Part shown: positions 1-64,000 of the stretch, in pieces
How the letters are laid out: each line of letters opens with the position of its first letter
How positions within the stretch are numbered: the stretch's first letter is position 1
Source: a bacterium
GTDB taxonomy: Bacteria; Patescibacteriota; Microgenomatia; Daviesbacterales; UBA10151
NCBI GenBank assembly: GCA_021790255.1
Contig: JAJYIE010000001.1
Span: 4,165-68,164, forward strand
Length of the DNA stretch: 64,000 bases
Direction of reading: 5' to 3'
Notes under the pieces: model-generated
The model's database searches: none
What the model saw: the letters and a program-made list of their open reading frames with translations, nothing else
Told to the model about the DNA's origin: nothing
Position numbers and translations under genes: made by a program

Positions 1-662
1 GTTTGTACAATTTCTTTATGGACCTCCTGTGGAGTTTTAACCTGGTCTTTTTTTAAACAATTAATCATTACCCAGTTCAAATCCTGCCTGGCCATATCCA
101 GATAAACATCAGCCGCTTCCTGTTGGTATTTAATATTATTTTCATGGATATCAGCACCTTTCTCTTTTAAATATTCCCTTTTTTCTTTTTTAGCTACCAG
201 CTTTATGCTTTGCTTCGGAGGCATAAACAAAAAAATAACCAGCTCTTCCCTGGGAATGCCGTTAATGTTATATTCCAAATCGTCCAGCCAGTCAATAAAA
301 TTCTGGCGCATCTCTTTGGGCAGCTTGGCGGACATATAAGCCTTATTGGAAGGAACGTAACGGTCAGCAATAACTAAATTACCCTCATGCAACCACTGCT
401 GGATTTGCGGTTTTGCCAAAAACCTGTCCCCGGCATAAGCCAGTGAAACAAGATAAGTTCCCACATCCGCTCCCAAATCCCCAAAATCGCCGTTTAAGTA
501 TTTACCGACCAGCTTACCGTAAGGATTTCCGCTGTAACGGGGAAATCCAATCACCTGATGCGGGAAGTCCATCATTTGAAGTTTGCGGCGCAGCATTTTT
601 GCCTGGGTCGCTTTACCGGACCCGTCAGTTCCTTCAATAACAACAAAATGCCCTTTTTTCAT
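1..662 (-). CDS. tmk: Thymidylate kinase, partial (C-terminus lies beyond the window start).
   Basis: Manual reverse-complement translation from the ATG at 662..660 gives MKKGHFVVIEGTDGSGKATQAKMLRRKLQ..., with the classic Tmk P-loop/LID signature. The reading frame stays open to position 1. This gene is absent from the ORF track because it has no in-window stop. Its ATG overlaps the dut stop as ATGA. Confidence 0.85.
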   Translation of the reverse strand, partial: MKKGHFVVIEGTDGSGKATQAKMLRRKLQMMDFPHQVIGFPRYSGNPYGKLVGKYLNGDFGDLGADVGTYLVSLAYAGDRFLAKPQIQQWLHEGNLVIADRYVPSNKAYMSAKLPKEMRQNFIDWLDDLEYNINGIPREELVIFLFMPPKQSIKLVAKKEKREYLKEKGADIHENNIKYQQEAADVYLDMARQDLNWVMINCLKKDQVKTPQEVHKEIVQ

Positions 663-1093
663 TTATGTCCGGTGGTTCCGAATCCTCCCCGGCTGGGTTT
701 TCGCATATTTTCCACTTCTTCCCACTCCGCAATTTCTACCGGTACAAAAATCCCCTGGGCAATCCTCTCTCCCCGCTCAACTACCACCTCTTGGGCTGTA
801 AAGTTATACACTGCTACTTGATATTCATCCTCCGGTCCGCAGAAATCCTGATCGCCAATACCTATTCCATGCGGCGGCAGTAATCCTTTTCTAAAAGGTG
901 TCGAGCCTCTTGATCCTACCACGAACATATACCCCGGCGGTGTTTCAATAATTACATTAGCAGGAATTTTAGCCAAGCTCCTCGGTGCCACTTTTGTTGT
1001 TATCCTGGCGTACAAATCACAGCCTACTGCGCCGGCAGTTTTATATTCCGGCAGGGGCAGGGTTTTGTCCAGTCGATAAATTTTGATCTTCAT
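659..1093 (-). CDS. dut: dUTP diphosphatase (dUTPase).
   Basis: 144 aa. The dUTPase motifs are present: AGAVGCDL, SRGSTPFRKG, ERIAQGIFVPVE and a C-terminal RGGFGTTG. Confidence 0.9.
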   Translation of the reverse strand: MKIKIYRLDKTLPLPEYKTAGAVGCDLYARITTKVAPRSLAKIPANVIIETPPGYMFVVGSRGSTPFRKGLLPPHGIGIGDQDFCGPEDEYQVAVYNFTAQEVVVERGERIAQGIFVPVEIAEWEEVENMRKPSRGGFGTTGHK

Positions 1094-1671
1094 TGAACTT
1101 TTAACTTTTTGAGCAGCTCATCCAGTTTCTTCTCAAACTCTTCCAAAGTACCATTGTTTTCAATCTTAAAATCAGCCATTTCAATCGTAGCGGGGATATT
1201 CCTTCCGTCACCATACTGTTCCCTACCCATCATCTCCTTAAACTCTTTCCAAATTACAGGGTCTTTTCTGCCGGTAGTCTTTGCCCTCTCAACCATTCTG
1301 GCAAACCTTATTTTTTCATCAGTGTCAATGAAAATAAGCCGGAAGTTAGGAATGTGTTTCCGGAAAAACTCTACTTCTTCCGTTCCTCTCAAAGAACCAA
1401 CCGTGGCTTTTCCCGGATGCTTATCCAATACATTCTGCCAGGTCCTTTCAGCTAAAACCATGGGGCCGAATTTTTCCCTCATCTCTCCCGCCACTTTCTG
1501 CAGGCTATCCCTGGTTATCTCTTTACCTTGACGTACTATCTCCTCCCTAATCCGATCTGATAAGGAAGAGCTGTAAAAACCATGTTTCTCCTGCAGATAG
1601 GCCAAAGCCGTGTCCTTGCCGGCGCAAAGCTGGCTTACAAACCCCAAAATAATTTTGGGTTGATCAGCCAT
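1090..1671 (-). CDS. Deoxynucleoside-monophosphate kinase, phage T4 gp1-like.
   Basis: 193 aa. The atypical P-loop FVSQLCAGKDT matches T4 gp1 SGVKRSGKDT as far as I remember it. The C-terminal ENNGTLEEFEKKLDELL resembles the gp1 C-terminus TNDGSLEELFSKIKN. Its start overlaps the dCMP deaminase stop (ATGGCTGA). Confidence 0.65.
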   Translation of the reverse strand: MADQPKIILGFVSQLCAGKDTALAYLQEKHGFYSSSLSDRIREEIVRQGKEITRDSLQKVAGEMREKFGPMVLAERTWQNVLDKHPGKATVGSLRGTEEVEFFRKHIPNFRLIFIDTDEKIRFARMVERAKTTGRKDPVIWKEFKEMMGREQYGDGRNIPATIEMADFKIENNGTLEEFEKKLDELLKKLKVQ

Positions 1672-2182
1672 TTTTCTCCTCCAGTTGAACTAGCTCAACT
1701 TTGGCTTTTTTTAACAATCTATGTGTTTCTGGATTTGGCCTATAATCATAGCGGTATACCATCCGGACCACCCCGGCGTTAATTAAAACCTTAGCGCAGT
1801 TATAACAAGGCAGATTATTGACATAAACCGTGGTATCTTTGGTGGAAGTCCCGTTAAAAGCTGCCTGGACAACCGCATTAATTTCAGCATGAACCGTCCG
1901 GACACAATGACCATCTTCCATTAAACATCCTGCTTCAAAGCAATCGGGCGTTCCTTTGGGTGAGCCGCAATAGCCGGTAGAGATGATTTTTCGATCACGT
2001 ACTAAAACCGCCCCCACTTTAAGTCTCTGGCAGGTGGCACGGGTAGACACCAGATCCGACAGTTGTAAAAAGTATTCATCCCACGACGGCCGGATATTTT
2101 GGCGCGGGATGACGCAGTGGACGCTGCAATATCTGCCGTCATGGCAATTAGGACATACGGTGGTAAGTTGAGCCTTGACCAT
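1664..2182 (-). CDS. comEB: dCMP deaminase (ComEB/Dcd-like cytidine/deoxycytidylate deaminase fold) with an N-terminal Cys/His-rich extension.
   Basis: HAEINA zinc-binding motif plus PCYNCAKVL. A SWDEYFL start motif appears at residue ~33. This is preceded by a 32-aa extension, CPNCHDGRYCSVHC. Confidence 0.85.
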   Translation of the reverse strand: MVKAQLTTVCPNCHDGRYCSVHCVIPRQNIRPSWDEYFLQLSDLVSTRATCQRLKVGAVLVRDRKIISTGYCGSPKGTPDCFEAGCLMEDGHCVRTVHAEINAVVQAAFNGTSTKDTTVYVNNLPCYNCAKVLINAGVVRMVYRYDYRPNPETHRLLKKAKVELVQLEEKNG

Positions 2183-2233
2183 AATTATTGATCTAATTTA
2201 GCATTAACCAGAAATATTTCAATAGATAAACTT

Positions 2234-3853
2234 TTACTTTTTAGTGACTCTACTTGCCGCCTTTACAAACCCCATGAAAAGCGGATGGGGCTGAAGCGGC
2301 CGGGATTTTAACTCGGGATGAAACTGCGTGCCGATGAAAAACGGGTGGTCTTTTAACTCAATCATCTCCACCAGTTTTTTATCCGGGCTGGTTCCGGCAA
2401 CCAGAAAGCCTTTTTTCGCAAAGTTTTTCAGGTAGCGGTTGTTAAATTCATAGCGGTGGCGGTGGCGCTCAGAAGTGTGTGGCCGGTTGTACAATTTTCT
2501 GGCCAGCGTCCCGGCTTTAATTAAACAATCCCACGCCCCAAGCCGCATTGTCCCACCGTAATCTTTTTTTAAAAGTTTTTTCTCCTGATCCGGCATAATA
2601 TGGATTACCGGGAATTTGGTTTTCGGATCCACCTCCGTTGTATGAGCTCCGCTTAAACCCAAGACACTTCGGGCAAACTCCACAGTAGCCAGTTGCATGC
2701 CGTAGCAAAGACCCAGATAAGGGATTCTATTTTCCCGACAAAACTTAATGGCGGCAATTTTTCCTTCCACATCCCGCGACCCAAACCCACCGGGGACGAT
2801 AATGCCCTGATATTCTTTAAGTTCTTCGACATGCTGTCCGTCATTGTAGCGGCCGGAGTCAATCCAGTTTATTTCCGGTTTTAATCCTTGTGTAAAGGCA
2901 GCATGTTTTAGGGCTTCAATCACGGAAATGTAGGAATCAGATAATACTCCTGCTCCAGAAGAGAAATACTTACCGACAATACCGATTTTCACCCCTCTCT
3001 CAGCCATTTCTGCTTTTGCCACAAAATCCCGCCACTTTTTCAGGTCTTTTTGTTTGCGCTTCAGGTGAAGCTTCTCCAGAATACGGTCAGTTAAATGGGC
3101 GTCTTCAAAATTTAAGGGCACCTTATAAACATTGGTTACATCCGGTGCCGGGATAATATCCTCGGCTTCGATCCCGGTGTTAAAAGACAGCCTTTTTATG
3201 CGTGGCGCATCAATGGCCACCGTGGAACGGGCGAGAAGAATATCCGGCTGAATTCCCACTGAATTTAAATCCCGGACAGACATTTGGGCCGGCTTGCTTT
3301 TCATTTCCCCTAAAAACTGCGGCACCGGCAAGTAAGTAACATGGACATGAATTACGTCCTCGTGTTTTTTTAATTTCATCAGCCGGTTGGCTTCCAGGAA
3401 CAGCATATTTTGATACTCCCCGGCAGTCCCGCCGATTTCCACCAGCACGATATCTGCATTGCGGTCACGGCCGGCTGCCTGAATGCGGGAGATGATTTCC
3501 TGCGTTACATTGTGGATGTCCACATAATCGCCGTCATATTCTAAATTCCGCTCCTTTTGGATAACCGAGAGGTAGATACTGCCTTGAGTGGCAATATTTG
3601 TGGAGTTTAAACTTTCTGCTAAGAATCTTTCATAGTGGCCTAAATCCTGGTCAGTTTCCCGGCCGTCATCCAAAACAAAGGTTTCCCCGTGCGCCAGCGG
3701 GTTCATCGTTCCAGCATCCACATTTAAATAAGGATCCATTTTAAGCGGAGCAACTTTAAAGCCGGCAGCTTTAAGAAGCAGGGCAATTGAAGCGGTGGCG
3801 ATACCCTTGCCAATCCCAGATATTACTCCACCGGAAACAAAAATGTACTTCAT
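2234..3853 (-). CDS. pyrG: CTP synthase.
   Basis: 539 aa. N-terminus MKYIFVSGGVISGIGKGIATASIALLLK, a glutamine amidotransferase C-domain and GYCGVCP-type motifs. Confidence 0.95.
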   Translation of the reverse strand: MKYIFVSGGVISGIGKGIATASIALLLKAAGFKVAPLKMDPYLNVDAGTMNPLAHGETFVLDDGRETDQDLGHYERFLAESLNSTNIATQGSIYLSVIQKERNLEYDGDYVDIHNVTQEIISRIQAAGRDRNADIVLVEIGGTAGEYQNMLFLEANRLMKLKKHEDVIHVHVTYLPVPQFLGEMKSKPAQMSVRDLNSVGIQPDILLARSTVAIDAPRIKRLSFNTGIEAEDIIPAPDVTNVYKVPLNFEDAHLTDRILEKLHLKRKQKDLKKWRDFVAKAEMAERGVKIGIVGKYFSSGAGVLSDSYISVIEALKHAAFTQGLKPEINWIDSGRYNDGQHVEELKEYQGIIVPGGFGSRDVEGKIAAIKFCRENRIPYLGLCYGMQLATVEFARSVLGLSGAHTTEVDPKTKFPVIHIMPDQEKKLLKKDYGGTMRLGAWDCLIKAGTLARKLYNRPHTSERHRHRYEFNNRYLKNFAKKGFLVAGTSPDKKLVEMIELKDHPFFIGTQFHPELKSRPLQPHPLFMGFVKAASRVTKK

Positions 3854-3986: not shown

Positions 3987-4511
3987 CTATTTCACTTGCA
4001 GTTTGGGGTCAGCAGAAATTATAGAATCCCCTCCGGAAACTGAAGCTGTAAAAAAATAAACCGGAGCGCCACTTAATCCTCCAATCATTCCCCCGTTATC
4101 CTCAGCGACCCATTGCCCTATGGCTACTCCACCTTTAAAAACCGCCGGGTCTGGATTGATCTTAACTGCTCTGGTCCCGAAAATCCCCTGATCCTGCTGA
4201 ACATTAAACACCACTGTTTCACCGTCACAATCCCCGGCTCCTTTTACCTGCAGTGTCGCTGGCTCCCCCAGACCGATTGAATCGGTACCTCCCGGCACTA
4301 CCCAGCTTGCCCCGGTTAACTCACAGGCAGTAAATGAAACTGCCTGCGGACGCGGTGCAAAAACCTTCTCGCTGCTGGCAGAAGAGTTCAGGGTTTGTCT
4401 TTGCCCAAGTAGAGCAGTCGTAGCAAAAATTGACAACAAAACAACTCCCGTCAAAAGATAGATCAAAAGATTGCTGCCGGTTTTAAACTTTCGCTTTTTT
4501 TTAGACATCAC
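3987..4511 (-). CDS. Hypothetical membrane-anchored / secreted protein.
   Basis: 174 aa. Lys-rich N-terminus followed by one hydrophobic helix (LLIYLLTGVVLLSIFATTALL). No recognisable domain. Confidence 0.5.
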   Translation of the reverse strand: MMSKKKRKFKTGSNLLIYLLTGVVLLSIFATTALLGQRQTLNSSASSEKVFAPRPQAVSFTACELTGASWVVPGGTDSIGLGEPATLQVKGAGDCDGETVVFNVQQDQGIFGTRAVKINPDPAVFKGGVAIGQWVAEDNGGMIGGLSGAPVYFFTASVSGGDSIISADPKLQVK

Positions 4512-6754: not shown

Positions 6755-7471
6755 ATGGGAATCGAGGCCCAAAACCCCTCCGCTGCTGGTCAACATCTTT
6801 CTTCCGTCCCAGAAGAGACTTTTGCTTTTCCTCCCGATTTAGACCCTTCGCTGTACGTTGTTGAGAGTCTGCCGGCAAATCCGACAGCTCCCGAGCCTGT
6901 TAACTTCTCAAGCTCGGAATTAAAGATTCTTTCAAAGCTTGAGTGGAACCTGGCGGATTTTATCTCATTGCCGCGCCAGGAAATTGCCACTCATGTTATG
7001 CCCGGAAGCCCACTACCCAAAACAGCCCGTCCCAAAAGAGTTGTCCGCATCTCGGCCATGGCCCTAGCACAAGAAGCAGCTGAAAGAACCCAAGCAAAAG
7101 CAAAAAGGGTTTGTCTTCTTGCTCCACCAGCTCCGGTTCTTCAACTTCCGCCACCTACACCACAAGATACTTATTATCCCGCTGATGAGAACCGGGCAAT
7201 TCCTGAAGAAGATCGTTTGTTTAATTTCTTGTCGCCTGAAAGTAAAACTTTTGACAGGTTAACCCGGATCATCCTGCAAGCCGATATCCTCAATATGCCC
7301 AGCCGGGAAACGTATCCGGCAGCAGTTTTTGTCTCCCGGCAAATGCCGCGCTATGAAGATGCAGCACTAAGCAAAGCATTGCGACTAGGTTACTGGAAAA
7401 ACTGGTTGGTTCTGGAAAATCTTTACCGCGGAAGTTCCCAAGGTATAAGCAACTACTTAATGTCTCTTTAA
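6755..7471 (+). CDS. Hypothetical Pro-rich protein.
   Basis: 238-aa ORF that fills the gap between the divergent topA and the next minus-strand gene. No domain recognised. Coding status uncertain. Confidence 0.35.
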   Translation: MGIEAQNPSAAGQHLSSVPEETFAFPPDLDPSLYVVESLPANPTAPEPVNFSSSELKILSKLEWNLADFISLPRQEIATHVMPGSPLPKTARPKRVVRISAMALAQEAAERTQAKAKRVCLLAPPAPVLQLPPPTPQDTYYPADENRAIPEEDRLFNFLSPESKTFDRLTRIILQADILNMPSRETYPAAVFVSRQMPRYEDAALSKALRLGYWKNWLVLENLYRGSSQGISNYLMSL

Positions 7472-7474
7472 TGA

Positions 7475-8290
7475 TTACTTTCCAGGGTTACCACATTCAC
7501 CTGGTTTGACTCCATCACTCTGCAAAGCGAAGTATTCACTGCCGTTGATTTTTAAATGTTCCGCAATAACTGTTTCATTGGTTTGATATCGATAACCATC
7601 GGGCGTTGGTCCCGTTGCCCCACACTGCGGGTACCTTTCATAGGTAGCATAAGTCGGACTAACATTAGCCACCTTGTAAAGAGTAGTAAAAGTTTTCGAT
7701 AATATCTTAGTCACCAAATCCGGCTCCCGAAACATGTCTTCGTTATACTTTCCTTCCCAAAGGGTCAACTGGTAAGTCGTACCTTCCTTCGGCACAAACA
7801 CCCGGTTAGCTCCGCGGATATTATTTATCGCTCCGTCAATCGTCGCGCCACTGTAGCGGTTAGTGTTGCTTTCAAAACTAAATAAATAGCGGTCGGCAGT
7901 GTTGTCATGGCCAACCTGATGAAACTCTGACCAAACGCCCGGATAGATTTTTCCATAGGTAGCAACGCCTCTAAAGGAAATTGCCAAATGCGGCATCAGG
8001 GTGTATCGGCCCATATACTCATGTGGGCCATGAATTCCGGAGAAAACCTCAACTTTGGTAGCAGGCTGCTCCGGACTATTCCCGGCTTCAACTTTATTGG
8101 CAATTGGCAAGGAAGCCGCCACCAGCGAGGCAGCAACAGCCGCGGCGCATGCTCCACAGGCCCACCTACCTCGGCCCTTTGCCCGGGGAACTCTCAAATT
8201 ATCCGTTTGATTCTTTTCCCCAGTGACAGTCAATTCAACTTTTCGATCCATGGCAGCGGCAACTATATCTAATTTGCCGTTAACTGTCAA
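7475..8290 (-). CDS. Hypothetical secreted protein.
   Basis: 271 aa. Signal-peptide-like stretch (WACGACAAAVAASLVAASLPIA). No recognisable domain. Confidence 0.5.
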   Translation of the reverse strand: MTVNGKLDIVAAAMDRKVELTVTGEKNQTDNLRVPRAKGRGRWACGACAAAVAASLVAASLPIANKVEAGNSPEQPATKVEVFSGIHGPHEYMGRYTLMPHLAISFRGVATYGKIYPGVWSEFHQVGHDNTADRYLFSFESNTNRYSGATIDGAINNIRGANRVFVPKEGTTYQLTLWEGKYNEDMFREPDLVTKILSKTFTTLYKVANVSPTYATYERYPQCGATGPTPDGYRYQTNETVIAEHLKINGSEYFALQSDGVKPGECGNPGK

Positions 8291-56981: not shown

Positions 56982-59900
56982 TTACCCGCTTCCCGGGCCC
57001 GACCTGAAATTGTTTTTAGCGGTTTTCAGTAAATTTATCTTATGCGTCGAGCCTCTCCCTCTTTTTCCCTGGGTTTTTCTTCTAACAAACAGGGGGATTA
57101 GGACACCCAAGGACAGCAGATAGACGAGCCTTTCCGGAATAATAATATAGTTCCAGTTTAAAGTATACGGAGAGGATGTGCCTGAGGTCCACTCGGCAAA
57201 GACCCTTCCTGAGGCAGGCAGACTGGCAGTAAGGTAACGGGGAGTGGTGCCTGTCGTCCAGCCTGTTGAGGCCTCTTTGGTCCCCCATGATCCTGAGAAG
57301 TAGCGGGAATAATAAATTGCCGGAGTGGCGCTTTTAATATACAGAACATAAATATCTCCGTTGGCAGTATCCGAGGTGATACTTACAGATGACATCCCGC
57401 CTGTTGAGTCAACTCTGGTAGGTGAAGCGTCCCATGAAGTGCCGTTGTATTTTTTATACTGGACATAACCTGAGGAGTCAATGTAAGCAAGATGGGTATT
57501 ATAACTTGAGTCAAAGGTTGTCGAGATACCGTTGGCAAAGCCTGTCTGGCCGGTAGCAATACTGTCCAGCGTTTGCCAACCGGATCCGGAAATCCACTTC
57601 TTGCCTTCAATTGCTGTCCCGCGAATCCAGGTAGCGTAAATATTGCCTGAGGCAGCAGGTTCCAGGGCCCCGTAAAGGTTGGGGTCGGTATTTGTGCCTG
57701 AAGAAAGTGAAACGGCTGCGTTCCAGCTCGAGGGATTCTGGATACTGGTTGACTGGACGCCATACATGGCAATATAGCGGCCGCCGGTCGTGCTGTATGA
57801 TTGACCCAAGACCCAAAGGTAACCGTTGGTGTCCTGGCCGATATACGCCAGATGGTATAAAGAAGACGAGGAACCAGTCAAGGCAACATAGCCCGAAGCA
57901 TCCCAGCTGATATTGGTGGCAGAAACCGTGCCGCGCCTGACCATAATGCTGTATGAGTTGGCCCCGGTTGTTTCAAAATAGGCAATATATATATAGGAAG
58001 AAGAGTAGTCTTTAAAGACTGAAAAATCAGCTGTGTTTTCCGCCAAAGGTGAAATAGCCGTCCAGCCGGTATTCCAGGGAGAGGCGCTGTATTCAATCTT
58101 AATATCCAGGCCGGTGCTGTCATACGAGAAGCGCCAGTAAGATCCGCCGGTGGCATCATAAAAAGTTTTTCTCTGGAAAGAGTAAGCAGTAATCCCGCCG
58201 TCTGCCGCCCCGCCGCAGGTATCAGAGGTAATAACCCAGTTACTATTGTCTCCCGAGTCGGATGAATCAATTGCCCCAATCCGCGCTATATTATTTGAGT
58301 CTTTAATGTCGGCAAACCTGACGGCTCCCGTTGCCGAGACATTTAAAGCATACTGGCTGCCTGCTAAATCTGAATACAGCTTGACTTTACTGCTGCAGGC
58401 TCCCCCGCTCGCTGTAAGCGTCCCCGTCACATTCGTCTGGTGAAGATGGTCAAAGTCAACCTCCTTTGAGGCGGTAGAAACGGTTAGGTTATAAAAGCTG
58501 GTGGCAACAGAGTATGTAAGAACCGATGCCCCGGCTCCGTTGAATGTAACCGTGCCGGAGTTGGCGGTAAAAGTGCCGTTATTGGTAAAGTTGCCGGAGA
58601 TGGTAAAACCAGCAGAGCCGGAGGCAGAGAAGGTATGGCCGGAGCCGATCGTCAAGTTGCCGGTGATATTTATGGCAGGATTGTTAGTGCTTGCATTGAC
58701 GGTTAAAGTCCCTGCTCCTGAAGTAGTAAAATTCCCGTTAACAGTCAGTGTACCGCTGTTTAAATAATAAATTTGTGTGCCTGAGGCCGGAGCAAAACTT
58801 AAAGCATTATAAGTTGTAGCCTCAATATCAGAGGCAGATGTGCCGGTAAAGGTGGTAGTTGCGGGGGCAGTAAATGTCCCTCCGTTAATATAAAGGGGCC
58901 GGGATGTTGTTTGTCCTGAACCGGTTAAAGTTAATGTTTCTGTTGACCCGGAATATGTTCCCCCTGTAACAATATGGAGTTCTGGTGTGGTTACATTTGT
59001 TCCGGGAGCGTATGATCCCATTACGTGCAGCTCTGATCCTGAAACAGTTAAATTATTGCTTCCATCACAGGTAAAAAGGTTATCCCCTGAGGGAGGATAA
59101 GTGGAAAAAGAGCATATATTGGCATTTGTTGTAGAGGAGGAGTTATTGTTGGTAACAGCCAGCCTTCCTATGTATAAGTTGAGGTTGGAGATGGTAGCAG
59201 CGCCAAAAATGGTAGTTGTGTTGGCATTATTTGTGGCTCCGGAAATATAAACCATCACTTTGGCTCCGGCCGCGGCAGTTATGCCTGAGAAAGTAAATGT
59301 GCTTTGACCTGCAGAAACAGTTGTGGTGGTTGGAGCAGCGTTATTGACGGACAAAGCTACGGTATAACCTGTGGTATCAGGGGTCGTCTCGTCAGATTGG
59401 TAAATAGTCCCGCCGATTGAAGGGTACGGGGTAAACGGCGACCCGGTAATTGTCACGCCGGTATCGTAGTTCAGGTAACCGTCAGCCTGGAAGATTTTGT
59501 AGGAGTAAGTAGTCCCATTAGTGACAGTCGTATCAGTGCAGTTGACAGCCGTGGAGTAAGCATCGGTTGTTCTCACACAGGCCACAGTTGCACTGCCGAT
59601 GGTATTCCCGGCGCTGTAACTTGAGCCTTCTGCCGGGACATCAGATCCGGGGGTCGAGGCGGTCCAGCGCAGGAGCACCGACTGGGAAAAGTCGGTGCTT
59701 GAAGAGGTGGTCCAGTTGATGGTCACGGAGTTGCCCCCAACCGACCCCGAAGTTGAGGTAGCCCCGTTGGGTGAGAGGTTGTCAATTGTGACGGTAGCTG
59801 AGGCACCGTCGCTACCAGCATGGGCATTAGTGGAAGTAAAAGCGGTGACTGTCCCTGTTATGGCGTACGATCCCCCCGGAGGAGCAGGCATGGCTGAGGC

Positions 59901-62900
59901 GGATTTGGGGGTGATGCGCACTTTGAAGGTGGTAAGGGTGGTTGTCACAGCGATGTTGCAGCCGGTAAAGCTTAAAGTTGTCGAGGCGGGGTTGGTAATG
60001 GAGGTGCACTGGGCGGTGTTGGAGGTGTCGGTAATATCCGCCTGGCCGATACCGGTGTAGGAGTTTAAGGTCACCGTTAGGGCAGTTACCGTATCGGTCG
60101 CGGCGGAAGTTTGCAGAGTAAAAGCATCCAAATCGGTGGCAGCCCCACCCGGGCCGATGGTGACATTGGAGGGATTTGTCCCGTCCCCTAAGGTAGTGGT
60201 TTTGGGGTCAAGTGCCAATTGCCAGGGGTGAAGCTCAGTAAAAATAACCTGTCCTTTCTCAGAAACCCTGGACGGGCCTAAAGCATACAAAGCCGGGGAG
60301 ATTTTTGGGGCCTGATAAGTATAACTTAAGGTTGCGCTCTTCCCCGCCGCTAGGTTAATATTCCAGTCAATCTTCTGATCGGTCATCCCTGCTCCATTAT
60401 TTTGGATTCCTGCCTGCGCAGAAATGACGGAAGATGCAGAAGCGGGAGAAACGGATTTGATGACAAAGCCTGCAGGAACCGCCTCTTCTACCACTCCGTT
60501 GGTAATCCGCCGGGCGGCTGTTACCTTCATAGTCATGGTGTAAGCGGACAGGAAAGGATTGATTCTGGTAGCCCCGACTCTTTGAATAGCCAGCGGATCA
60601 CCACTCCTCACCACAAAAAAGGATGAGGCGTCAGCTCCGTTGTCGGTGTTGGTCAGCTGAATGTCATATTGTCCGGCGGAGAAGGTTGAAATATAGGCAA
60701 AATAGTCCGGCGAATTGGTAAAATTATCCGGCCCGCATGTTGGTGATGTCCGAACCCCGGGGTGCAAAACTACCCCCTCAGGAGTTGTAACAGTCAGAGT
60801 CAGGTTAGAGGTGCAGAGGGTGTGTCCGTTATTATCTAACGAGGCCATCTGAATATAGGCGCTTTCCCCTGATACATAAACTGTCTTGTCAGTATTTATG
60901 GCCAAGACTCCCCACAAAAAGTCCTGGCTCATAACCTTGCCTGATGAACCGGTGATTTGCAGTGTCATTTTTCCCGGGTGGGTACCCTGAGGAAAGTTTA
61001 GCTGCAGGCTGTGACTGCTTCCGTTTGTCTGGGCGCTGCTTGAAAAGTTGACCTTTTCGCCAAAGGAGTCCAAAACCGTAAAGCGGTAGAAGGAGGCTGC
61101 GTGACCACCCAGGTTGATATTTACGGATTCCCCTGCCTGGTATGCTTTCTTCGGCAAGGCAAAGGTCGGATCAAAGAACGAGTTTATTGCCGGGGTTGGA
61201 GTGGTGGTTGGGGCCAGAGTAACTGCCGCTGCCGGGGTATCGCTATACACTACCCACGGGTTTCCTTCCTCAAAAACGCTCACCAATTGCGCTTGTGGTG
61301 CCGTCAGCTCCTGCGCCAAGACCCGGGTCGCTCCAATCTCCCCAATACCCCCAACCTGAACGTGTGATAGTGTTTGCAGTATTGCGTGATAGATTGATGT
61401 AGTGATGGAAGTAATTTCGTTGATAACCCCTGCAAACAAATTACCACCTGAAGTTACCGGTTGTAATCCGGACACCGCTTTGCTGCCGTTTGCAAGGTAA
61501 GCTTGAAATGCAGGAGATGCTGTCGCCGAAGCTCCCAATATCTGAGCTGATGGTGTGGCAGAAACCGTTGATTCTGTTAACTTGTTACTGCGAGCCGAAG
61601 GCAGAGTGGGGGTGGGCGTTATCTCTTTTTCCTGCTGAATTATAAGCGGTCCGAATGAATAATCAACCGGCGAGGCAGCAGAGGTTTGGAAAATGTATGA
61701 AAACCCCGCTGCCTTACCTCCCTTTAAATTAACTGTCCAGGTTAAGGTAGCCGAACCGTCTAAATTGGGAGTTTGAGTAAGTCCGGTGGAAGGCTGGACA
61801 CTCGCCACGCTCACCCCCGCAGGTACAGTTTCTTTTACCAAACCCGTGAAGTCATCTACGGTGGTGAGGGTAAACTTCATCCGCTGGTCCCCGTCTTTGG
61901 AATAGATCCTGACAGGAGCCTGTCTTGTGACGGTAAACTGCGGCTTAACCTCAGTTTTGATATATGAGGTAATAGCCGCATTTGTATCAGTATTTATCAG
62001 TGTGATAGTGTATGTACCTACCTCGGATAAGGTGAAGGCTGAGGTGTAATCAGGGTTTTGCGGTGTCTGGCCAGCCCGGCAGTTGTGAACTTGCATTATG
62101 GCCGGTTTTAATGTTAGGCCCGACGGCGTGGTAATGGTTAAAGCAAGGTTTGCATCGCACAAAAGGTGGCCCGAATCTCCGGTTGCTTCCATATAGAGAC
62201 TGGCCCTTTCCCCTACTTTGTACAAAGAGGAGCTGCTGTTTAGCGCCAAAGTCCCCCAGCTAAACGGCAGGGAAATTACTTTTCCTCCTGTGTCAGTTAA
62301 GCTAAGGGTATATTTTCCGGGGACAAACGTTCCTTTTTGGGTAATAACTAAAACATCAGACCCTGTACCATCTTCTTCGCTTATTACAACCGGCACAACC
62401 TCCCCGTTGTAACTGGTTAGTTTTACACCCAGATGGTCCAGGTGAGACGAGCCGATGTTCACCTTCACCACCTCTTCTGCCTTAAGGCTTGTCTTCTCTA
62501 AACTCATCTGACCGGTTAGATCTGATGGTTGGTTGAGCCCCGAAAACTTGCCGCTTAAAAAATCCTTCAGTGATAGAACAGGAGAGAGAATAGCGGGCAG
62601 GGAGCCGGAAGAGGTCGAAGATGGGGATGAAGAGGCAGAAGGCGCTACAGTGGGAGTGGGTCCCGGAGCAGGGGTAGGAACAATTGTTGGTGCAGGCATT
62701 GTGGTTGGCGTGGGTGTGTTGTCACCAGCGGAGGAAGCGGCAGCGACAACTCCGGAATCTGATACTGAAGGCCGGGATGATGATGCTGCAGGTGTGGGCG
62801 TGGGGGTAACTGATATAGTTTGAGCACTTTGGCTAGCCTCAGATGAGGTATTTTGCAAGATTTGGGATGAACCACTTTGCACAGCGCCAGGGGCAAGAAG

Positions 62901-64000
62901 TACACCTGATGATGTGCCCTGGGCATAAGCCGGAGCAGGGCTAAAGTATGGAGCATAGGGGGCCAAAGATAGAACGGTATTGGTTACGAGCAGGAGCATG
63001 GCAAGAAATGCTTTTGATGCATAGCGCCAGCCGCGCCTTGGCAGGGCAAATGAATCAAAGCGTGAGTTTGCAGATGTCAGGGCGAGGTAGGGTGTGGCGG
63101 AACTGTTAGCAGACAGACTGAATGCCGCCCTGGAACCTGAGAAAATCCCTGACACAAGACGGTAAAACGTTCCCCTGGTAAATACATCCGTGACCCTTCC
63201 TGTTTTGGGTGTCCTGAACCACCCACCCTCTTTTTCTTCGGTAAACCCTTTGACGGCAGCATAAGCCTGGAATGGCACGATTAGGTAACATAGAACAACA
63301 AATGAGGCAATTCCAAGGTAATCTTTTTCCTCTGACTCTTCCAGAAAAAGCCCGACGATATTTACAAGGGGAAGGGATAACATATTTGTGAGAACCAGCG
63401 ACCAGCCCCAAAGAGATGTCCAGAAAGGAAGCCTGACCTGGAAAGCCACCTCAGCCAAAAGCCAGGAAAAAGTCCCCAAAAGAAAGAAGAAGGCCTGAAG
63501 ATAATACGGGGCAAGGTATACTGTTTCAAACTTTTCTGCTCCGGTTAAGTTTTGGGAAACAAGAAGTTTTCTGAGCATCAGCTTAATATTAAAAGAGTGC
63601 CCCTCCGCCCATCGCATCCTCTGTCTGATAAGCCTCTTGAATGTTGACACACACTCTGCGGGAGCCTGAATGTATGGAGTGTAAACTACTTTATAGCCCG
63701 CCTCATAAAGGCGCAGGGTCAACTCAAAATCTTCAGTAATGGACGACCCCCAGCCCACCTTCTGCAGCGGATCTTTGCGGATCATATACACTGAGCCTGA
63801 GATCATCTTCAGCCCCCCGTAAAGCTCAGTTCCGGCACGCTCGATAACATAAGATCCTGCATACTCGGTTCTTATCCCTCTGGTAATCCAGTTTTCTGAT
63901 TTGTTTAAAACATGCCACTGGTATCCCTGAACTGCTGCAACTTTGGAGCTGGTGTAATCTTCTGATCCGTTATTTTGTACTTTGAAATACTTTAAGAAGA
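56982..64000 (-). CDS. Giant fusion protein, partial (N-terminus beyond the window end). A GT2 processive glycosyltransferase catalytic/TM module is fused to a ~2,000-aa Ser/Thr-rich extracellular multi-domain region with a C-terminal TM anchor.
   Basis: The 2274-aa ORF is extended manually in frame to position 63998 (FLKYFKVQNNGSEDYTSS...). It carries the GT2 ITEDFE and QRMRW (QxxRW) motifs, then ~5 TM helices. Next comes a PT-rich linker and two paralogous ~300-aa modules. After that is an NxT/GxT-rich beta-helix-like repeat region and a Y/W-rich blade-like repeat region. The sequence ends with LVYLLSLGVLIPLFV followed by RRK. Confidence 0.8.
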   Translation of the reverse strand, partial: FLKYFKVQNNGSEDYTSSKVAAVQGYQWHVLNKSENWITRGIRTEYAGSYVIERAGTELYGGLKMISGSVYMIRKDPLQKVGWGSSITEDFELTLRLYEAGYKVVYTPYIQAPAECVSTFKRLIRQRMRWAEGHSFNIKLMLRKLLVSQNLTGAEKFETVYLAPYYLQAFFFLLGTFSWLLAEVAFQVRLPFWTSLWGWSLVLTNMLSLPLVNIVGLFLEESEEKDYLGIASFVVLCYLIVPFQAYAAVKGFTEEKEGGWFRTPKTGRVTDVFTRGTFYRLVSGIFSGSRAAFSLSANSSATPYLALTSANSRFDSFALPRRGWRYASKAFLAMLLLVTNTVLSLAPYAPYFSPAPAYAQGTSSGVLLAPGAVQSGSSQILQNTSSEASQSAQTISVTPTPTPAASSSRPSVSDSGVVAAASSAGDNTPTPTTMPAPTIVPTPAPGPTPTVAPSASSSPSSTSSGSLPAILSPVLSLKDFLSGKFSGLNQPSDLTGQMSLEKTSLKAEEVVKVNIGSSHLDHLGVKLTSYNGEVVPVVISEEDGTGSDVLVITQKGTFVPGKYTLSLTDTGGKVISLPFSWGTLALNSSSSLYKVGERASLYMEATGDSGHLLCDANLALTITTPSGLTLKPAIMQVHNCRAGQTPQNPDYTSAFTLSEVGTYTITLINTDTNAAITSYIKTEVKPQFTVTRQAPVRIYSKDGDQRMKFTLTTVDDFTGLVKETVPAGVSVASVQPSTGLTQTPNLDGSATLTWTVNLKGGKAAGFSYIFQTSAASPVDYSFGPLIIQQEKEITPTPTLPSARSNKLTESTVSATPSAQILGASATASPAFQAYLANGSKAVSGLQPVTSGGNLFAGVINEITSITTSIYHAILQTLSHVQVGGIGEIGATRVLAQELTAPQAQLVSVFEEGNPWVVYSDTPAAAVTLAPTTTPTPAINSFFDPTFALPKKAYQAGESVNINLGGHAASFYRFTVLDSFGEKVNFSSSAQTNGSSHSLQLNFPQGTHPGKMTLQITGSSGKVMSQDFLWGVLAINTDKTVYVSGESAYIQMASLDNNGHTLCTSNLTLTVTTPEGVVLHPGVRTSPTCGPDNFTNSPDYFAYISTFSAGQYDIQLTNTDNGADASSFFVVRSGDPLAIQRVGATRINPFLSAYTMTMKVTAARRITNGVVEEAVPAGFVIKSVSPASASSVISAQAGIQNNGAGMTDQKIDWNINLAAGKSATLSYTYQAPKISPALYALGPSRVSEKGQVIFTELHPWQLALDPKTTTLGDGTNPSNVTIGPGGAATDLDAFTLQTSAATDTVTALTVTLNSYTGIGQADITDTSNTAQCTSITNPASTTLSFTGCNIAVTTTLTTFKVRITPKSASAMPAPPGGSYAITGTVTAFTSTNAHAGSDGASATVTIDNLSPNGATSTSGSVGGNSVTINWTTSSSTDFSQSVLLRWTASTPGSDVPAEGSSYSAGNTIGSATVACVRTTDAYSTAVNCTDTTVTNGTTYSYKIFQADGYLNYDTGVTITGSPFTPYPSIGGTIYQSDETTPDTTGYTVALSVNNAAPTTTTVSAGQSTFTFSGITAAAGAKVMVYISGATNNANTTTIFGAATISNLNLYIGRLAVTNNNSSSTTNANICSFSTYPPSGDNLFTCDGSNNLTVSGSELHVMGSYAPGTNVTTPELHIVTGGTYSGSTETLTLTGSGQTTSRPLYINGGTFTAPATTTFTGTSASDIEATTYNALSFAPASGTQIYYLNSGTLTVNGNFTTSGAGTLTVNASTNNPAINITGNLTIGSGHTFSASGSAGFTISGNFTNNGTFTANSGTVTFNGAGASVLTYSVATSFYNLTVSTASKEVDFDHLHQTNVTGTLTASGGACSSKVKLYSDLAGSQYALNVSATGAVRFADIKDSNNIARIGAIDSSDSGDNSNWVITSDTCGGAADGGITAYSFQRKTFYDATGGSYWRFSYDSTGLDIKIEYSASPWNTGWTAISPLAENTADFSVFKDYSSSYIYIAYFETTGANSYSIMVRRGTVSATNISWDASGYVALTGSSSSLYHLAYIGQDTNGYLWVLGQSYSTTGGRYIAMYGVQSTSIQNPSSWNAAVSLSSGTNTDPNLYGALEPAASGNIYATWIRGTAIEGKKWISGSGWQTLDSIATGQTGFANGISTTFDSSYNTHLAYIDSSGYVQYKKYNGTSWDASPTRVDSTGGMSSVSITSDTANGDIYVLYIKSATPAIYYSRYFSGSWGTKEASTGWTTGTTPRYLTASLPASGRVFAEWTSGTSSPYTLNWNYIIIPERLVYLLSLGVLIPLFVRRKTQGKRGRGSTHKINLLKTAKNNFRSGPGSG

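Follow-up and report, generated by a model that had tools for sequence, protein, structure and literature searches.

What does a small P-loop kinase do in an operon that supplies thymidylate precursors? The question is raised by a gene for a 193-aa kinase on contig JAJYIE010000001.1 of a Daviesbacterales bacterium (assembly GCA_021790255.1), of which we analysed a stretch of 64,000 nucleotides (positions 4,165 to 68,164), called the window hereafter. A sequence-only reading of this DNA had taken the product for a deoxynucleoside-monophosphate (dNMP) kinase of the phage T4 gp1 type. We found that it belongs to a large, cellular kinase family which is defined by obligate pairing with a Zn-dependent dCMP deaminase. 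Judged by its conserved residues and gene associations, it is most likely a dedicated pyrimidine deoxynucleotide (dCMP/dCDP) phosphotransferase acting with that deaminase. We put the probability of this overall explanation, which covers identity, pairing and the dCMP/dCDP role, at about 0.5; family identity and deaminase pairing by themselves are highly probable, and the specific dCMP/dCDP reaction is a tentative assignment.

Family identity and pairing with dCMP deaminase

The pairing was surveyed in 76 genomic loci chosen by the kinase motif only and annotated locally, which hold 78 kinase open reading frames (ORFs) from bacteria of the Candidate Phyla Radiation (CPR), DPANN archaea, Acidobacteriota and Clostridia. 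A dCMP deaminase is fused or adjacent to the kinase in 70 of these loci, and 46 of the 78 kinase ORFs are fused to it. Kinase-deaminase fusions of 331–365 aa account for 45 ORFs and occur in Acidobacteriota (including Bryobacterales chromosomes of 4–7 Mb), DPANN archaea and Omnitrophota, and the reverse order is found in one fused ORF at one locus. Among the unfused pairs, the kinase precedes the deaminase in Aminicenantes, Clostridia and Armatimonadota (17 ORFs), and the deaminase precedes the kinase, as in the window, in CPR Microgenomates (8 ORFs). Seven ORFs at six loci stand alone, with uninformative neighbours (dnaB, lepA, LemA, Hsp20 and glnA). Other fusions among the top representatives combine deaminase and kinase (P0264), Tmk and kinase (P0232), Dut and kinase (P0273) or tandem kinases, some of which may be gene-calling merges. 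CPR operons follow the order topA-(pyrG or DUF1846)-deaminase-kinase-thyX-tmk-glyA-folD or deaminase-kinase-dut-tmk. Five loci with CPR-type gene order (L008, L009, L018, L043 and L048) come from third-party annotation records titled 'uncultured Gammaproteobacteria', which looks like a taxonomic mislabel.

The fusions and gene neighbourhoods are strong (Rosetta-stone) evidence, from which kinase and dCMP deaminase appear to cooperate in the supply of thymidylate precursors. The presence of the same unit in the large Acidobacteriota chromosomes speaks against the earlier suggestion that the gene compensates for a streamlined genome, and the kinase does not appear to be a patch for reduced genomes alone.

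As for the protein itself, the family profile matches UPF0200 (Sulfolobus solfataricus SSO1041, structures 3LW7 and 3H0K, entitled 'adenylate kinase-related protein bound to AMP') over the full length at E 4e-28, the next match being CoaE at 6e-8. The AF2 model of the kinase (pLDDT 95.3) has 3LW7 as structural neighbour with a value of 23.2 (1.7 Å over 169/170 residues), and phosphomevalonate kinase (17.9), yeast UMP kinase (17.1) and CoaE (15.3) are further neighbours; the closest crystal structure is an AMP complex. Residues G18, K19, R54, R65, R95, R122 and N172 are invariant among 52 homologues, with R42, R129 and D167 nearly so, and conservation of the catalytic residues is repeated in 77–78 of 78 kinases from independent genomes. 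The kinase has the Walker lysine, the D-x-x-R of the nucleoside-monophosphate (NMP) site (D39/R42), the second-domain arginine R95 and the arginine-rich lid (R122/R129) that characterize short-lid NMP kinases, and HMMER aligns its lid ERAKTTGRKD to the short lid ERGKTSGRSD of yeast UMP kinase. Because of the conserved residues, the alignments with yeast UMP kinase and the AMP-bound structure, we consider it equipped as a phosphate-acceptor NMP kinase, and predict a catalytically intact phosphotransferase of the P-loop NMP-kinase fold. The window kinase also carries everything that marks the deaminase-associated clade, i.e., deaminase adjacency, the invariant R54, SLSDRIREE and NNGT. At E<=1e-30 the family comprises 1393 clusters (50% identity).

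Resemblance to yeast UMP kinase raises the question of whether the protein is a UMP/CMP(/dCMP) kinase of general function and eukaryotic NMP-kinase type, one that would stand in for PyrH and/or Cmk where CPR and DPANN genomes are reduced and would owe its operon position to pyrimidine metabolism in general. Similarity to the eukaryotic UMP/CMP and adenylate kinases is marginal (yeast Ura6, 1UKY/1UKZ; E 1e-3 to 1UKY), TIGR01359 for UMP/CMP kinases gives 21.7 bits against a cutoff of 207.6, and no match of the window kinase to PF00406 (ADK; cutoff 26.8 bits) was reported. The C-terminal NNGT and R54 distinguish the window's family from both eukaryotic types. Moreover, large Acidobacteriota genomes, in which separate PyrH and Cmk would be expected, have the kinase in fusion with dCMP deaminase, and the partners of the kinase (deaminase, tmk, dut and thyX) are deoxy-specific rather than ribonucleotide genes. 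A general UMP/CMP kinase is thus rather improbable.

The same residues bear on a deoxycytidine (nucleoside) kinase, which would make dCMP from salvaged deoxycytidine for the deaminase. Such an enzyme would catalyse the step immediately before the deaminase, salvage would suit episymbiotic CPR and DPANN organisms, the relatives CoaE and shikimate kinase phosphorylate hydroxyl groups, and a few family members give weak hits to the dNK family of Pfam. Yet in D-x-x-R spacing, R95 position and short lid the window kinase lines up with NMP kinases, whose acceptor is a phosphate, and the closest structure binds AMP. Hydroxyl-acceptor kinases have acidic catalytic-base motifs, namely DxD in CoaE and a Glu in dNK; no counterpart was noticed in the window kinase, for which no dedicated test was made. 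We consider nucleoside kinase activity very improbable.

Comparison with phage, archaeal and defence relatives

The unusual P-loop GFVSQLCAGKDT and the C-terminal motif ADFKIENNGTLEEF, from which the sequence-only reading had argued for T4 gp1, are both present in the 193-aa product of ORF 1090..1671 (minus strand), and the gp1 motifs given for comparison are accurate, as judged by the gp1 sequence (X03016); our gp1 query is 100% identical to X03016 gene 1. The kinship itself stands as a remote link to phage dNMP kinases. phrog_139, the PHROG that holds T4 gp1, matches the kinase over its full length at E 9.5e-11 (42.7 bits), and Pfam DNMK picks up 22 of the 52 family members at E<=0.01, the best of them at 1e-7. 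However, gp1 itself scores 222.6 bits against phrog_139, and since UPF0200 SSO1041 matches it just as well as the kinase does (43.3 bits), the likeness is at the level of the superfamily. The window kinase reaches 14.3 bits (E 0.032) with DNMK (PF21448; 232 positions, gathering threshold 27.1), in residues 17–54 around the P-loop only. BLASTP against T4 gp1 gives nothing but short local matches in the C-terminal 28 residues and the P-loop, and hhalign of the 52-sequence family profile aligns only the last 26 columns (57% probability). The gp1 structure 1DEK is not the nearest structural neighbour either (rank 15, value 13.6). Membership in the T4 gp1 type was rejected, with DNMK below threshold and no full-length alignment to gp1.

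The two motifs add little. GKDT (D20) is seen in 2 of the 52 relatives, against a consensus of GKGT, as in adenylate and UMP-CMP kinases, and the C-terminal xNxGxxEEL motif is also found in UPF0200 (3LW7 alignment). CoaE carries this motif as well. As GKDT is private to a few members and the C-terminal motif is shared with UPF0200, neither can, on these alignments, be taken as diagnostic of the T4 gp1 type. What the kinase and T4 gp1 (1DEK, PF21448, phrog_139) have in common is the P-loop kinase superfamily, GKDT (by coincidence in the lineage of the window kinase), the C-terminal D-x-x-I-x-N-x-G-[ST]-x-E-E-L motif and a dNTP-precursor setting with dCMP deaminase, thymidylate synthase and dUTPase activities. 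T4 gp1 acts on dGMP, dTMP and hydroxymethyl-dCMP, and is not known to act on dCMP or dAMP.

We likewise found nothing that speaks for acquisition from a phage or by another horizontal route. A scan of IMG/VR returned no kinase relatives, and tblastn against 50,697 phage records gave a best E of only 2e-4, with a few phage 'dNMP kinase' genes at 2e-4 to 5e-4. The GC profile is flat and synteny is conserved among related CPR genomes (Microgenomates). A recent phage or horizontal origin was rejected on these grounds. A broad-specificity T4 gp1-type kinase (for dGMP, dTMP and modified dCMP) horizontally acquired from a phage could draw on the phrog_139 and DNMK matches, on the alignment of the C-terminal motif and on the few phage genes recovered by tblastn, and is very unlikely in the light of the rest. 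The earlier reading had named best hits to another P-loop family, together with no significant similarity to gp1, as what would speak against it; the best hits are indeed to UPF0200, with CoaE next, and the profile similarity to the gp1-containing PHROG is significant. For genome annotation, motif-level resemblance to T4 gp1 is therefore a superfamily trait and no evidence of phage origin.

The closest matches thus raise the question of orthology with archaeal UPF0200. The window kinase resembles SSO1041 in full-length sequence and fold. It scores 50.5 bits with NCBIfam NF006226 (PRK08356), far from the equivalog cutoff of 189, and in a neighbour-joining tree of 232 kinase domains, a simple distance tree with rough support, 87 UPF0200 sequences form a pure clade without a deaminase-linked member. 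UPF0200 proteins (SSO1041, PF1294) lack the invariant R54 and the SLSDRIREE signature, both of which are present in the deaminase-linked kinases. Their neighbourhood is one of RNA processing (PF01877 RNA-binding protein, CCA-adding enzyme, LigT and THUMP methyltransferase at three archaeal loci), is absent from the window and differs from the deaminase/dTMP surroundings of the window kinase. Orthology was rejected on account of the different neighbourhood and the separate clade.

At the three UPF0200 loci (L083–L085; Pyrococcus PF1294, Sulfolobus SSO1041 and Nezhaarchaeota), a PF01877 'RNA_binding' gene lies close by and is adjacent in two of them, and in Sulfolobus and Nezhaarchaeota genes for the CCA-adding enzyme, a LigT-type 2',5' RNA ligase and a THUMP methyltransferase are near. 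This gene context hints that the archaeal role may be RNA- or tRNA-end-related. The possibility that the window kinase is a dephospho-CoA kinase (CoaE), or a UPF0200 orthologue sharing any such RNA-related role, gains something from JGI labels of relatives ('dephospho-CoA kinase'), from weak Pfam CoaE hits in 31 of 52 relatives (best 2e-6), and from CoaE structures being the second-best sequence hits and UPF0200 the closest structure. The window kinase gives 13.4 bits with TIGR00152 (cutoff 65.55) and has no reported PF01121 match at E<=0.1, and we hold this possibility to be the most improbable of those considered. By the curated thresholds, the window kinase is placed outside the gp1 family, UPF0200 proper, CoaE and the anti-phage dCTP deaminases.

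The last of these groups turned out to be related in architecture. The PADLOC dCTPase model (PDLC02373) matches the kinase at 2.3e-15 (residues 4–188), the deaminase at 3e-24 and a natural kinase-deaminase fusion of 332 aa (P0052) at 2e-61, and in hhalign a Rhizobium protein annotated as an anti-phage dCTP deaminase aligns over 165 columns (97.7% probability). These profile comparisons make the N-terminal kinase-like domain of anti-phage dCTP deaminases a homologue of the kinase. Both have a Zn deaminase partner of the dCMP-deaminase type, and the IDSIRxPxEV and ADffIxN motifs are common to both.

The differences are equally clear. The defence enzyme is a single polypeptide of >350 aa with the kinase-like domain followed by the deaminase (definition of Tal et al.), whereas the window has a deaminase ORF of 172 aa followed by a separate kinase ORF of 193 aa; the defence proteins measure 430–580 aa and have large insertions. 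The window pair lies in a dTMP housekeeping operon, next to topA and rpsB-tsf-frr and in no defence island, in contrast to a defence example found among genes for helix-turn-helix, ImmA and ubiquitin-like system proteins. The window deaminase is ComEB-like (164 bits) and scores 65.5 bits with the defence-type model NF041025 (cutoff 400), with which the kinase scores 28.8 bits. A split defence system was rejected given the housekeeping context, NCBIfam scores far below the cutoff and the retained Walker lysine.

In turn, all 24 P-loop-containing relatives of the Rhizobium defence protein, a sample drawn with a single query and covering one subclade, have the Walker lysine replaced by G, S, T, A or I. 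Their Walker A reads G-x-x-G-x-G-[GSTAI]-[SGT] (L088 3569–5194; P0307–P0341). Because the lysine is gone in 24/24, the kinase-like domain of Rhizobium-type defence enzymes is unlikely to transfer phosphate canonically. The loss is in keeping with the "G29, C30" motif that was mutated by Tal et al. (bioRxiv 10.1101/2021.04.26.441389), who found the kinase domain essential for dCTP depletion and left its role open. By comparison, the window pair would seem to be a housekeeping version of the defence architecture that is split in two and catalytically intact.

This homology gives weight to an explanation in which the window protein is a non-phosphorylating nucleotide-binding subunit that lets the Zn deaminase take dCTP/dCDP or senses nucleotides; the pair would then be a housekeeping dCTP deaminase whose product dUTP is cleaved by Dut, and the ancestor of the anti-phage dCTP deaminases. 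The essential role of the defence domain in dCTP depletion, the report that AvcD deaminates both dCTP and dCMP (PMC10511110) and the position of dut directly downstream of the kinase agree with it. However, the housekeeping family preserves the Walker lysine and every NMP-kinase arginine without variation, and many relatives' operons lack dut beside the pair. Since the lysine is invariant in the cellular kinases and lost in the defence clade sampled, the former presumably still transfer phosphate. We regard a non-phosphorylating subunit as unlikely.

Proposed function of the kinase-deaminase pair

For the dCMP/dCDP phosphotransferase that we favour, the following course can be proposed. The kinase would bind ATP/ADP at its GxxxxGK(G/D)T loop and hold the pyrimidine deoxynucleoside monophosphate by D39-x-x-R42, R95 and the lid arginines R122 and R129. 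Beside the deaminase, it would transfer phosphate reversibly (dCMP + ATP <-> dCDP + ADP). The dCDP that ribonucleotide reductase produces would enter as dCMP into deamination to dUMP; alternatively, dCMP would be diverted to dCTP, and the pair would partition the flow between the dCTP and dTTP branches. We infer that the kinase and its fused partner share a ligand, dCMP, and may form a physical complex.

Several points weigh against this assignment. No member of the family has been characterised experimentally, and at six of the 76 loci no deaminase lies near the kinase. In the set of motif-selected loci, conservation of residues 36–44 is true by construction. Substrate and direction are read from association only: for a fused kinase, deoxycytidine, UMP/CMP, dUMP or dTDP would be equally plausible substrates, and partnership with tmk, dut and the deaminase would suit several pyrimidine substrates. 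In the partner deaminase, the GY(N/C)G motif is retained, which we take to mark the dCTP/dTTP allosteric site of dCMP deaminases; a regulatory need for the kinase is therefore not obvious. Neither in the window nor in the CPR loci did tblastn with Escherichia coli cmk, pyrH, ndk, gmk and adk find a match; the search covered about 70 kb of this genome and is uninformative about absence.

A further step, which is possible and in our opinion doubtful, leads to a two-subunit (elsewhere single-chain) housekeeping enzyme that would take dCDP/dCTP from ribonucleotide reductase straight to dUMP and would be the ancestor of the anti-phage dCTP deaminases. Reverse phosphotransfer (dCDP + ADP -> dCMP + ATP) would be followed by channelled deamination, and AvcD-type enzymes would have evolved from a catalytically active ancestor by loss of the Walker lysine.

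Operon structure and significance

The features of the locus are collected in Table 1. In its account of the gene arrangement, the sequence-only reading was borne out: the kinase is translationally coupled to the dCMP deaminase by the ATGGCTGA overlap, the tmk, dut, dCMP deaminase and pyrG neighbours were identified with Pfam and NCBIfam, and the ATGA overlaps on either side of dut make a coupled operon of what had been described as a compact dUMP/dTMP supply module. Translation of the kinase ORF begins MADQPKIILGFVSQLCAGKDT. thyX lies beyond the window edge and was seen in a public contig (L086) that is 100% identical to window positions 1–2320; past the edge, this contig continues with the rest of tmk, a 28-nt gap, ThyX (321 aa) and then rpsB-tsf-frr. 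Because L086 carries thyX after tmk, the gene order of the operon is pyrG-deaminase-kinase-dut-tmk-thyX, and this operon yields dTDP from cytidine and uridine nucleotides. The nearest relatives of the kinase are found in Candidatus Daviesbacteria and Shapirobacteria (CPR Microgenomates), and the remaining window genes are ordinary bacterial ones, e.g., topA, Clp ATPase, penicillin-binding proteins, Wzy and YfhO.

Table 1. Coordinates of the kinase gene, its motifs and the adjoining operon genes within the window
Feature	Position	Strand	Remarks
P-loop NMP-kinase-fold protein, 193 aa	1090..1671	minus	deaminase-associated clade related to UPF0200
Walker A / P-loop GFVSQLCAGKDT	1609..1644	minus	G18 and K19 family-invariant; S13 and D20 lineage-specific
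SLSDRIREE motif (D39, R42)	1540..1566	minus	HMMER alignment to NMP-binding LSAGDLLRAE of yeast UMP kinase
C-terminal motif ADFKIENNGTLEEF	1135..1176	minus	D167 and N172 conserved; sole stretch alignable with T4 gp1
dCMP deaminase, Zn-dependent, 172 aa	1664..2182	minus	HAE and PCxxC motifs; PF00383 2e-23; ComEB TIGR02571 2e-48
N-terminal Cys/His cluster CPNCHDGRYCSVHC of deaminase	2114..2155	minus	codons 10-23; lineage-specific
dUTPase (dut), 144 aa	659..1093	minus	PF00692 4e-15; NF001862 3e-25
Thymidylate kinase (tmk)	3-662	minus	first 220 of 234 codons, gene cut by window edge; PF02223 2e-19
CTP synthase (pyrG)	2234..3853	minus	51 nt upstream of deaminase; PF06418 8e-94
Overlap ATGGCTGA, kinase ATG within deaminase gene end	1664..1671	minus	8 nt, translational coupling
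ATGA overlap, kinase stop / dut start	1090..1093	minus	
ATGA overlap, dut stop / tmk start	659-662	minus	

The extra Cys/His cluster CPNCHDGRYCSVHC that had been noted in the deaminase is present in a 30-aa N-terminal extension. A relative with about 90% identity (P0157) retains CPDCHDGRYCSVHC while its flanking residues differ, hence the cluster is under selection. Partner deaminases of other CPR loci (150–164 aa) are without it, and its sole profile match is a weak one to zf-MYND (E 0.02). From its composition, it is probably a small extra zinc knuckle.

Some further observations were made around the operon. In the 51-nt gap between pyrG and the deaminase, a promoter-like site (2195–2222, minus strand) consists of TTGAAA, a 16-nt spacer and TAAATT, with an upstream TG, and could be an internal promoter for deaminase-kinase-dut-tmk-thyX; the promoter and terminator scan gave nothing above chance, promoter-like sites in the region not exceeding the shuffled expectation. 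An Rfam scan of the window gave zero hits. Just downstream of the operon, rpsB-tsf-frr is found without pyrH in between (L086 4051–6006; L004 9167–10588). In bacteria, pyrH (UMP kinase) usually lies between tsf and frr. An ORF of 169 aa between thyX and rpsB (L086 3466–3975) has no Pfam hit, and ORFs of 174–271 aa around topA (3987–4511, minus; 6755–7471, plus; 7475–8290, minus) have no Pfam match at E<=1e-4. At the far end, a very long ORF of 2274 aa occupies 56982–63806 (minus strand).

The kinase looks like an ordinary small kinase and, from its sequence features, is best filed as an NMP-kinase-fold enzyme with a dedicated deaminase partner. Our literature search returned nothing on the function of UPF0200/SSO1041/3LW7, on kinase-dCMP deaminase fusions, on a housekeeping kinase-dCMP deaminase unit or on the structure of AvcD; a dUMP kinase was mentioned only in passing, in a paper on a dU-DNA phage. 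Papers on anti-phage dCTP deaminases offered, as far as found, no explanation for the essential N-terminal kinase-like domain. In current annotation, family members go under "AAA family ATPase" or under "dephospho-CoA kinase", the latter wrongly.

The breadth and strictness of the pairing, together with the link to a defence domain that awaits explanation, make the family a concrete experimental target. The housekeeping relatives keep every catalytic residue and in CPR bacteria consist of two small separate proteins; being intact and separable, they provide a simpler system for decoding the defence domain. If it exists, the two-subunit enzyme would explain where CPR, DPANN, Acidobacteriota and others obtain the dCMP for dTMP synthesis by way of dCMP deaminase, which has long been unclear. 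And should the pairing prove functional, a family of at least 1,400 sequence clusters would have a concrete role, open to testing, in the supply of thymidylate precursors; it is spread over several phyla, many of them uncultured.

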